Virus record (IMG/VR): IMGVR_UViG_3300035696_000755
Strand: one strand, 5' to 3'
Length of the DNA: 10,079 bases
DNA from: a virus
Shown: positions 4,425 to 5,465 of the stretch, one piece after another
Layout: each line of letters opens with the position of its first letter
Numbering within the stretch: the stretch's first letter is position 1
Position numbers and translations under genes: made by a program
The notes under the pieces: generated by a model
What the model was told of the DNA's origin: nothing
The model's input: the letters and a program-made list of their open reading frames with translations, nothing else
Databases searched by the model: none

Positions 4425-4488
4425 AAAAGTTCAAAAAATTTGCCAAAAAACTAGCCAAAACCTCTCGGTCGCAGGTATACTATGGATA
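4425..4488 (+). promoter_or_regulatory. second copy of the conserved promoter module (A-tract aaaaaattt; CTAGCCAAAAC 4451-4461; -10 TATACT 4476-4481)
   Basis: The 11-mer and the GGTATACT element are identical to those at 491-521, with identical 12-nt spacing. It lies immediately upstream of the Ku ORF. Confidence 0.5.
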
Positions 4489-5465
4489 TGGCAAGCACAA
4501 TGACACAAACCGACCTACTGGCTGCGGCACTCGCCGCCGGCCTCGCCCCAACCAAGCCACAGTTGAGCACCGCCTCTGCCGAGAAGGCTATGGTCTCTCG
4601 GGCGACATGGACGGGTGTTCTTAGCTTCAACGTTCTGAACATGAACGTCAAAACCTTCAAGTCCATCGAGGCCGAGAAGGTGGAACTGAACATGGTTCAC
4701 GCTTGCAACCACGCCGACATTGAGAAGGCGATTGCGGACGGCAAACCGGCTCCTGAGCCCAACTACAACCAACTCAAGCAGGGTGCAATGACCTGCCCCG
4801 TGTGCAGCGAAGCGGTTGAACGCGCCAACATCCTCAAGGGCTACCAGTACGAAGACGGCAAGTTCGCCATCGTCACCGACGAGGAGAAGAAGGCCTGCCA
4901 AGTCGCCAACGAGAAGGTCATGCCCATCGAGAAGTTCGTGGACGTGAACGAAATCGACCCGGTTTACTTCGCGGCTTCCGAGTACATCGCTCCCGCCGAC
5001 GAGACCTCCAAGATTCCTTTCGCCATCCTGCGTCAGGCAATGGTCGAGCAGAACACCGTCGCCATCGTCAAGACCAACCAGCGTGGTCGTCAGGAGACGG
5101 CGGTCATTCGCCCCTACGGCAACGACGGCGGCATGATTGTCAGCTACCTGTACTTCGACAACGAAGTTCGCGGTTGCGACAAGTGGACGAAGGTCAACCT
5201 CGACGGACCGAAGGAATCGGCTCTGGTGGACATCGCCACTCAGTTGGTCGCTTCCATGACCGGCACCTTCAACGTGACCGAGTATTCCGACCTGTCCATG
5301 CGCCAGTACAAGGGACTCATCAACGACAAGATTATGGGCAAGGTGCCCACCGCGACCGTGATTGCCCCGGCTCCCACCGTGGACAAGAAGATGGACTTGA
5401 TGTCGCTCCTGTCTGGTGCTCTCGCCAGCGTCAAGGGCACCAAAGCCAAGGGCGCAGCGGCTTAA
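4482..5465 (+). CDS. ku: Ku-family DNA end-binding protein (bacterial/phage NHEJ Ku homolog) with a Lys-rich C-terminal tail. The start is ambiguous: ATG 4482 or 4488 gives a leaderless 36-aa N-extension, while ATG 4590 (MVSRATWTG…) aligns with canonical Ku N-termini.
   Basis: RATWTGVLSFNVLNMNVKTFKS matches the bacterial Ku N-terminal signature (compare M. tuberculosis Ku MRAIWTGSIAFGLVNVPVKVYSA). Other segments that align with bacterial Ku are QGAMTCPVCSEAVE…YEDGKFAIVTDEE, IDPVYFAASEYIAP, IPFAILRQAM…AIVKTNQRGRQETAVIRPYG and the C-terminal tail …MDLMSLLSGALASVKGTKAKG. Confidence 0.85.
   Translation: MDMASTMTQTDLLAAALAAGLAPTKPQLSTASAEKAMVSRATWTGVLSFNVLNMNVKTFKSIEAEKVELNMVHACNHADIEKAIADGKPAPEPNYNQLKQGAMTCPVCSEAVERANILKGYQYEDGKFAIVTDEEKKACQVANEKVMPIEKFVDVNEIDPVYFAASEYIAPADETSKIPFAILRQAMVEQNTVAIVKTNQRGRQETAVIRPYGNDGGMIVSYLYFDNEVRGCDKWTKVNLDGPKESALVDIATQLVASMTGTFNVTEYSDLSMRQYKGLINDKIMGKVPTATVIAPAPTVDKKMDLMSLLSGALASVKGTKAKGAAA

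Follow-up and report, generated by a model that had tools for sequence, protein, structure and literature searches.

Does a phage from an uncultured lineage encode a genuine Ku protein, how is it expressed and with which ligase might it act? Only a few phage Ku proteins, all from mycobacteriophages and dependent on the LigD of their host, have been characterised experimentally. The question is raised here by an open reading frame (ORF) in a 10,079-nucleotide (nt) stretch of viral DNA, IMG/VR record IMGVR_UViG_3300035696_000755, the whole of which is called the window below. In the ORF listing this frame spans 4482..5465 on the plus strand and encodes 327 amino acids. Residues in profile matches refer to this 327-residue ORF; individual residues such as Met35, His71 and Cys73 are counted from ATG 4488, the start codon favoured below.

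The product matched Pfam family PF02735 at 109.3 bits (cut-off 25, E 2.9e-31), PHROG family phrog_4873 ('Ku-like DNA end binding') over residues 40-322 (E 3.3e-33) and the NCBIfam equivalog model for bacterial Ku, TIGR02772 (Ku_bact), at 178.4 bits against a cut-off of 150 and with model positions 1-256 of 259 covered. By sequence it also matched the bacterial Ku chains 9vnq, 8v53 and 9i91 in the PDB (E 4e-25 to 3e-21). An AlphaFold2 (AF2) model of the monomer, which was built on an alignment of 122 sequences, had a mean predicted local distance difference test score (pLDDT) of 87.4 and a predicted template modelling score (pTM) of 0.73. When this model was searched with Foldseek, the top matches were the bacterial Ku structures 9vnq, 9ig8, 9i91 and 8v53 (E 2e-14 to 1e-11, probability 1.00); the homodimers of Bacillus subtilis and Mycobacterium tuberculosis (Mtb) Ku matched best, and eukaryotic Ku70/80 came next. 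All of the profile models and database alignments began at residue 37-42. An earlier note on this DNA had called the gene a Ku homologue, and four independent profile libraries and the fold agree with that call, the best matches all being Ku. We therefore regard the product as a bona fide Ku with near certainty. Binding of DNA ends by this protein is highly probable, and it would presumably do so as a homodimeric ring that threads onto the ends.

The same note had described Ku as rare in phages and proposed a search for homologues. Searched with the Ku of the window as query, 50,697 phage records gave only 87 matches, 86 of them from mycobacteriophages, and the mycobacteriophage proteins are only 25-27% identical to the Ku of the window. 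Only 2 viral proteins in BFVD share the Ku fold at E <= 0.001. In a survey of Ku evolution, viral Ku was limited to ten mycobacteriophages and one Streptomyces phage (PMC11936186), and the recombination and repair section of a survey of 224 jumbo-phage genomes does not mention Ku (PMC7824862). Megablast of the whole window against the phage records gave zero matches. The rIIA product encoded upstream is at most about 38% identical to that of any isolate, and no cultured phage is close.

Relatives were found in metagenomes. A word-indexed search recovered 13 clade members of 303-345 amino acids with 44-82% identity, after which the next matches were ordinary bacterial Ku at ~27%, and an exhaustive HMMER search returned 5,332 Ku proteins at E <= 1e-3, 30 of which reached E <= 1e-30. 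Identity to bacterial Ku ranged from 24 to 31%. Scans of IMG/VR with the single Ku protein and with the clade alignment revealed no relatives, and a scan of GTDB (one genome per species) revealed no clade member. Because these scans gave no member, the clade is so far known from metagenomic contigs only, which fits non-integrating phages. We conclude that the window belongs to a separate and sizeable Ku clade, comprising about 30 clusters at 50% identity and found only in metagenomes. The contigs compared are fragments of genomes. Around three more distant members (P0130, P0139 and P0146), small unannotated genes form arrays of phage-like character, together with genes for an HNH endonuclease, a UvrD helicase, or NAMPT and NUDIX proteins.

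Expression of the gene could be addressed by comparing the window with four related contigs (L001, L004, L005 and L007) whose Ku proteins are 47-78% identical to that of the window. A 60-nt repeat is present at 465-524 and 4425-4484, ahead of rIIA and Ku, and each copy contains TAGCCA-N18-TATACT (492-521 and 4452-4481). The intergenic region upstream of Ku has diverged among the five lineages, whereas the promoter motif, an A/T-rich stretch and a terminator are constant; the conserved motif reads TAGCCAAAA (or TGGCTAAAA)-N12/13-GTATACT. The repeat and the retention of motif and terminator in all lineages support the proposal in the earlier note that Ku has its own copy of the promoter. We found that the Ku ATG follows GTATACT by exactly 6 nt in five of the five lineages, and the N-termini of the relatives align with the Met at 4488. 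The A of this ATG occupies the usual start site of a sigma-70-type transcript. In the same genomes, rIIA carries AGGAGA at this +6-nt position and its own ATG about 10-12 nt further on, the geometry of the rIIA promoter being the same in L001, L004, L005 and L007.

This arrangement extends to other genes of the phage group. Among 21 copies of the promoter from the window, L001, L004, L005, L007, L011 and L012, an ATG was at the fixed position in 12, as compared with a chance expectation of about 1 in 64 promoters. A script classed five of the remaining nine as Shine-Dalgarno (SD)-like and four as 'other', three of the latter containing SD-looking sequences (AAGGAG, GGGAG and GAGGAG). Because an ATG (12/21) or an SD-like sequence (~8/21) sits exactly there, we infer that the position 6 nt past the -10 element marks the 5′ end of the transcript. 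Transcripts of this promoter family would then appear to begin with a start codon or directly with an SD sequence. Since the Ku ATG keeps this position across five lineages, translation is predicted, with good confidence, to start at ATG 4488 on an mRNA that is very probably leaderless. Thus, of the leaderless starts considered in the earlier note, ATG 4488 survived, whereas ATG 4482 falls within the 6-nt spacer and is absent from the relatives. The start given in the JGI database (ATG 4500; P0001, 321 amino acids) is unlikely for the same comparative reason. More distant N-extended Ku genes (L009 and L010) have ordinary SD leaders. The comparison indicates that the leaderless design is a habit of the phage group rather than a peculiarity of Ku, and that within the rII-linked lineages Ku has it without exception. 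We also observed that Ku in L004 is flanked by two genes with a sigma-70 region 4 or GerE/LuxR helix-turn-helix domain (9293-9820 and 11276-11938), which may encode phage transcription factors acting on this promoter family.

A start at ATG 4488 places 34 conserved residues ahead of the Ku core, rather than the start directly at the core (M-x-R-x-x-W-x-G) that is typical of a single-domain Ku, although that trait is not a strict one. The earlier note had recognised an extension of 36 codons; the extension proved to be real, but its length is 34. All 13 clade members carry it, with a helix of the form D-L/I-x-x-L/I-A/S-A-x-L followed by the KP...EK motif. In 27 of the 29 top distant cluster representatives at least 18 residues precede the invariant Trp, and these distant extensions typically consist of MAK and a Lys/Ala-rich stretch, an amphipathic helix and E-K just before the core. 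In contrast, ordinary bacterial Ku proteins begin M-P/x-R-x-x-W and have no such arm. Between the window and L001, its closest long-contig relative (78% identical), codons 7-36 differ by eight synonymous changes and one non-synonymous change. P0007-P0013 have I, V, E or A in place of Met35, the 'canonical' start (ATG 4590), but still conserve the upstream residues; since the Met is absent, these members cannot start at that position. The pattern of conservation indicates that the 34-residue arm is translated and under purifying selection.

Only the window and its five nearest relatives have an SD-like GAGAAGG, 4 nt ahead of ATG 4590 (window 4579-4592). As the GAG and AAG codons specify the conserved E-K of the motif, the resemblance to an SD sequence is perhaps incidental. 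A short Ku isoform starting at Met35 is conceivable in the subclade of the window. We also considered two origins for the sequence of the arm, neither of which was retained. Its helix, DLLAAALAAGL, looked like a copy of the C-terminal helix (DLMSLLSGAL / DLLAALEASL), but a hidden Markov model (HMM) of the bacterial C-terminal block scored it at only -2.7 to 3.2 bits, values equalled by shuffled extensions in >20% of trials when the relative was distant and in 1-6% when it was close. KPQLSTASAEK was compared with a sliding-clamp-binding motif (QL[SD]LF) and with a prohead-protease cleavage signal, and it fits neither consensus. That the arm tethers a partner or DNA is a guess.

The earlier note had further suggested that H-x-C-x-H and C-P-V-C together make a full zinc site. 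Both are present in the Ku of the window, the former as VHACNH. In Mtb Ku, cryo-electron microscopy revealed a probable coordination site in the bridge, to which one protomer contributes His35 and the other Cys48/Cys51 (PMC12658125). Our alignment makes these residues homologous to His71, Cys103 and Cys106, in keeping with the proposal that C-P-V-C is the CxxC of some actinobacterial Ku. Across 122 Ku sequences the residues at positions 71 and 103 co-vary (His with Cys in 104, Arg with Ala in 13), and D, E or C occupies position 106. Clade members have either the full set of three Cys (10 of 13) or none of them (3 of 13), and a partial set was never seen. In most bacterial Ku the place of Cys73 is taken by P, E, S, K or D, and the spacing H-x(1-4)-C...C-x-x-C was found in 22 of the 29 distant representatives; the distant N-extended proteins read H-x(1-3)-C-x-x-K/R-L...C-x-x-C, as opposed to H-x-x-D...C-x-x-D/E in typical bacterial Ku. 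It is likely, judging from these alignments, that His71, Cys73, Cys103 and Cys106 form a zinc site in which Cys73 is the fourth ligand. The second His of H-x-C-x-H was rejected as a ligand, this position being H, S or A within the clade, so that part of the proposal did not hold. Nor is a Cys3His arrangement unique to the phage clade, as ~48 of 118 other Ku representatives, mostly of ordinary length, also fit; it is enriched in the N-extended clade and present in a minority of ordinary bacterial Ku.

At the other end of the protein lies the helix that in bacterial Ku recruits the ligase. Conservation of D303, L304, L308 and S311 across the 122 sequences is 90% or higher, and S314-V-K316 aligns with S258-V-K260 of Mtb Ku. 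A preprint describes Mtb S258 and K260 as critical for LigD binding and the Ku C-terminal arm as contacting both the POL and LIG domains of LigD (bioRxiv 10.64898/2025.12.12.693941). Because the arm contacts LIG as well as POL, a ligase without POL could in principle, by analogy, still be recruited.

The earlier note had seen no ligD in the window, and we found no ligase of any kind there in the ORF listing or with Pfam. When the search was extended to related contigs, they were found to carry a compact ATP-dependent ligase, yet not LigD: no multidomain LigD (LIG, POL and PE) is encoded in the window or in the related contigs. In L005, a 266-residue ATP-dependent DNA ligase (PF01068, 52 bits) is encoded 8 kb downstream of Ku, and a homologue is found 1.4 kb from Ku in L009 (35% identity, E 2e-51 in pairwise alignment). 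A search for homologues gave 29 relatives, of which one (P0290) lies ~15 kb downstream of Ku and on the same strand in contig k141_122410, whose Ku is 78% identical to that of the window, and one (P0282) ~14 kb downstream of Ku P0010 on scaffold_78. In four cases Ku and ligase share contig and strand, and the ligase family spans 262-273 amino acids. The ligase gene of L005 and that of L012 are likewise preceded by this type of promoter, the ATG again being 6 nt past the -10 element. Pairwise alignment showed nucleotidyltransferase-like motifs (K-x-N-G-H-R, D-G/C-E-L, E-G-V/I-V/I and K-L-K-F-W-K), and the best NCBIfam model was that of the LigD ligase domain, TIGR02779, at 57-66 bits against a cut-off of 227.75. 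These mini-ligases are not LigD but consist of the nucleotidyltransferase and OB part only. Contigs bearing ligase homologues reach 413-435 kb, which suggests that the phage group consists of jumbo phages, to which the phage of the window would belong by relatedness only. A partnership between Ku and the phage ligase has, in our estimate, somewhat less than an even chance of being real.

The protein thus described belongs to the same family as Mtb Rv0937c (Mku) and B. subtilis YkoV, with the same fold, core length and C-terminal helix, and its His and Cys-x-x-Cys positions are those of the putative Mtb bridge metal site. It differs from bacterial Ku in its 34-residue arm, a ~20-residue helical insert and a very short basic C-terminal tail. 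Its gene also differs in being phage-encoded, in its predicted leaderless start and in not lying beside a multidomain LigD. Bacterial two-component non-homologous end joining (NHEJ) combines Ku and LigD, and the relatives of the window likewise pair Ku with an ATP-dependent ligase that is nearest to the LigD ligase-domain model; however, the phage ligase is without POL and PE, and in the rII-linked lineages it does not share an operon with Ku.

On balance we favour a model in which an early, leaderless Ku dimer caps DNA ends and supports their ligation. Ku would be the leading gene of a unit transcribed early from the sigma-70-like phage promoter, on an mRNA starting at the AUG, and the His/Cys cluster would bind zinc and stiffen the dimer bridge. 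Soon after infection, Ku would cap the ends of linear phage DNA, whether of the incoming genome, of replication or packaging intermediates or of molecules cut by host nucleases, and shield them from exonucleases. It would then hand the ends to a ligase, most probably the POL-less mini-ligase of the phage and otherwise host LigD, so that the genome is circularised or repaired. The flexible N-terminal arm would provide an extra element for docking or tethering a partner or DNA. A more specific form of the model, in which N-extended, zinc-stabilised Ku and a mini-ligase of LigD lineage, both leaderless and early, constitute a self-contained kit with the arm replacing the POL contact, is tentative and would have to be called doubtful at present. 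If correct, such a kit could allow circularisation and repair of the genome independently of host NHEJ and counter restriction enzymes, CRISPR and RecBCD.

Several observations weigh against the capping-and-ligation model. Leaderless and early expression is a prediction from sequence comparison. The arm is modelled by AF2 with moderate confidence and bears no detectable likeness to a known motif. Three clade members are without any of the Cys, so the metal site is dispensable, and the Mtb site spans two protomers, whereas our model is of a monomer. The mini-ligases fall well short of the LigD cut-off and have neither POL nor PE, and the window itself contains no ligase. Large phages commonly carry a ligase for replication, and the co-occurrence of Ku and ligase 8-15 kb apart may be incidental.

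A rival role is one in which Ku coats DNA ends against RecBCD, AddAB, AdnAB or other exonucleases of the host and the ligase is merely a replicative nick-sealer. Mu Gam is a precedent for the use of a Ku relative as an end cap: it is an early, phage-encoded DNA-end binder distantly related to Ku and a functional analogue in end protection. The early-type promoter, the position next to rIIA and rIIB, which are early host-interaction genes, and the separation of Ku and ligase in the rII-linked lineages would all suit this role. However, the Gam profile PF07352 gave no match, PF02735 being the sole Pfam match at E <= 0.01, and none of the BFVD fold matches at E <= 0.001 bore the name of a Gam protein. 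Unlike Gam, the protein of the window is a full bacterial-type Ku that has kept the ligase-recruiting C-terminal helix, S-V-K included. Moreover, the ligase shares the promoter type and leaderless design of Ku and lies close to it in L009. We therefore consider end capping on its own to be unlikely, although capping ends and feeding them to a ligase are not mutually exclusive.

Less probable still is the scheme of the mycobacteriophages Corndog and Omega, in which the phage provides no more than Ku, and host LigD joins short cohesive ends so that the genome becomes circular. Circularisation with host LigD is the sole role established by experiment for a phage Ku (Pitcher et al. 2006, as cited in PMC12848934). 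Omega gp206 and Corndog gp87 (phrog_4873) are likewise phage-encoded, bacterial-type Ku proteins, and the phrog_4873 match and the conserved C-terminal helix would be in line with a common role. The alignments with mycobacteriophage Ku start at residues 23-40 of the 327-residue ORF and thus cover no more than the end of the arm, and identity is only 25-27%. In addition, mycobacteriophage Ku is found in actinophage siphoviruses and relies on host LigD, whereas the window derives from a probable jumbo phage bearing rIIA and rIIB, whose relatives carry a compact ligase of their own.

We give very little weight to the idea that the phage Ku, through its arm, poisons or diverts host Ku and LigD, which can act as an antiphage factor. 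The arm is clade-specific, and host NHEJ is reported to restrict mycobacteriophages (PMC12848934); on the other hand, nothing points to heterodimerisation, mixed dimers are unlikely at the identity observed with bacterial Ku, and the protein passes an equivalog model of functional Ku. Finally, a start only at ATG 4590, which the earlier note named as the outcome that would abolish the extension and which would make the arm an annotation artefact on a Ku of ordinary length, is essentially excluded, because Met35, which the window and its five nearest relatives share together with the GAGAAGG, gives way to other residues in P0007-P0013, and because of the 8:1 ratio of synonymous to non-synonymous changes and the extension in 27 of the 29 distant representatives.

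Features of the rII-Ku region of the window (1-based positions; residues counted from ATG 4488)
Feature	Position	Strand	Remarks
rIIA sister promoter, TAGCCA-N18-TATACT	492..521	+	AGGAGA at 528-533, exactly 6 nt past the -10; rIIA ATG at 544
rIIA	544-3060	+	PHROG phrog_612, E 2.8e-108
rIIB	3035-4318	+	PHROG phrog_609, E 2.9e-59
Intrinsic terminator after rIIB	4388..4411	+	10-bp G+C-rich stem, then T-run; terminator scan
A/T-rich UP-like stretch	about 4414-4450	+	precedes the -35-like element
-35-like element, TAGCCA	4452..4457	+	inside conserved CTAGCCAAAAC
-10 element, TATACT	4476..4481	+	conserved as GGTATACT, 4474-4481
Probable start codon and predicted transcription start	4488..4490	+	A of ATG 7 nt past the last -10 base
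Ku coding sequence	4488..5465	+	325 amino acids plus stop; start placed by comparison
N-terminal extension, residues 1-34	4488..4589	+	conserved; outside the TIGR02772 model
Amphipathic helix, residues 7-17	4506-4538	+	on a flexible linker; AF2 pLDDT of about 65-70
Motif K-P-x-L-x-T-A/S-P/S-A-E-K, residues 23-33	4554-4586	+	directly precedes the core; KPQLSTASAEK in the window
Ku core (beta-barrel, bridge, helical arm), residues 38-309	4599..5414	+	TIGR02772, PF02735, Foldseek; AF2 pLDDT mostly >90
His71-Ala-Cys73, first half of putative Cys3His site	4698..4706	+	His71 aligns with Mtb Ku His35
Helical insert of ~20 residues (NHADIEKAIADGKPAPEPNY), residues 74-93	4707..4766	+	between the site halves; specific to the subclade of the window; AF2 helix 75-83, pLDDT >90
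Cys103-Pro-Val-Cys106, second half of putative site	4794..4805	+	aligns with Mtb Ku Cys48 and Cys51
Conserved C-terminal helix, K301-K316 (KMDLMSLLSGALASVK)	5388..5435	+	ligase-recruiting arm in bacterial Ku; AF2 helix 304-324
G+C-rich hairpin with UUCG loop after the Ku stop	5482..5503	+	weak U-tract; not flagged by the terminator scan

The gene order rIIA-rIIB-Ku is kept in L001/2/3, L004, L005/6 and L007, and the contigs carrying P0003, P0008, P0009 and P0010 share it. A hairpin and T-run comparable to the terminator after rIIB were found in all four of the other lineages. The hairpin that follows Ku, possibly a partial terminator or a stabiliser, is common to the window and L001; a different one is present in L004 and none in L005. 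No further copy of the promoter was found downstream of Ku within the window. Since the hairpin is weak and not universal and no later promoter copy follows, Ku may head an operon; it is promoter-proximal but not necessarily monocistronic.

Other features of the window and its relatives were recorded alongside. As listed, the rIIA and rIIB frames overlap by 26 nt, the rIIB ORF running from ATG 3035 and the rIIA stop ending at 3060. Residues 92-118 of rIIA contain a CxxCxGxG-type Cys cluster (CETCHGTG...CDDCNGTG) that resembles the DnaJ zinc finger weakly, the match staying below the cut-off (PF00684, E 0.001). Downstream of Ku, an ATP-grasp protein of the R2K clade (PF14243, 50.8 bits) is encoded at 6808-7608 of the window and kept in L001, L004 and L007. 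A PTH2-like peptidyl-tRNA hydrolase (PF01981, 24.1 bits, barely over the cut-off of 23) is encoded at 9127-9630, and relatives carry a methionine-aminopeptidase-like gene upstream (Peptidase_M24; L001 948-1661, L004 409-1101), which suggests that the phage carries translation-related enzymes. Scans of the window with Rfam and for tRNA genes found nothing.

Related phage contigs also encode, ~5 kb downstream of Ku, a protein of 849-875 amino acids with major-vault-protein domains (PF11978 MVP_shoulder, 84.7 bits; PF17795 Vault_3, 39.6 bits), located at 15946-18495 in L001, 14531-17158 in L007, 1-2540 in L011 and the start of L012. A vault-like protein is unusual in a phage. According to precomputed Pfam annotation, the L011 and L012 contigs encode a ClpB-like AAA protein split by an intein (Hom_end_hint, Hom_end and LAGLIDADG_3) and separate RNA-ligase-family proteins (PF09414); together these are listed at L011 18470-20779, L011 14379-15404 and L012 16523-17224.

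What is new here is a distinct clade of phage Ku, found only in metagenomes and marked by an N-terminal arm and a putative Cys3His bridge site, in large phages that carry rII genes and a minimal ligase. If Ku and this ligase cooperate, they would be the simplest known end-joining pair. The phage would then be able to protect, circularise or repair its genome independently of the host, which would be relevant to counter-defence, and the pair might possibly be useful as a compact end-joining tool. In addition, the fixed spacing between promoter and ATG provides a natural set of genes, leaderless or with an SD sequence at +1, for studying leaderless translation in the early expression of phages.

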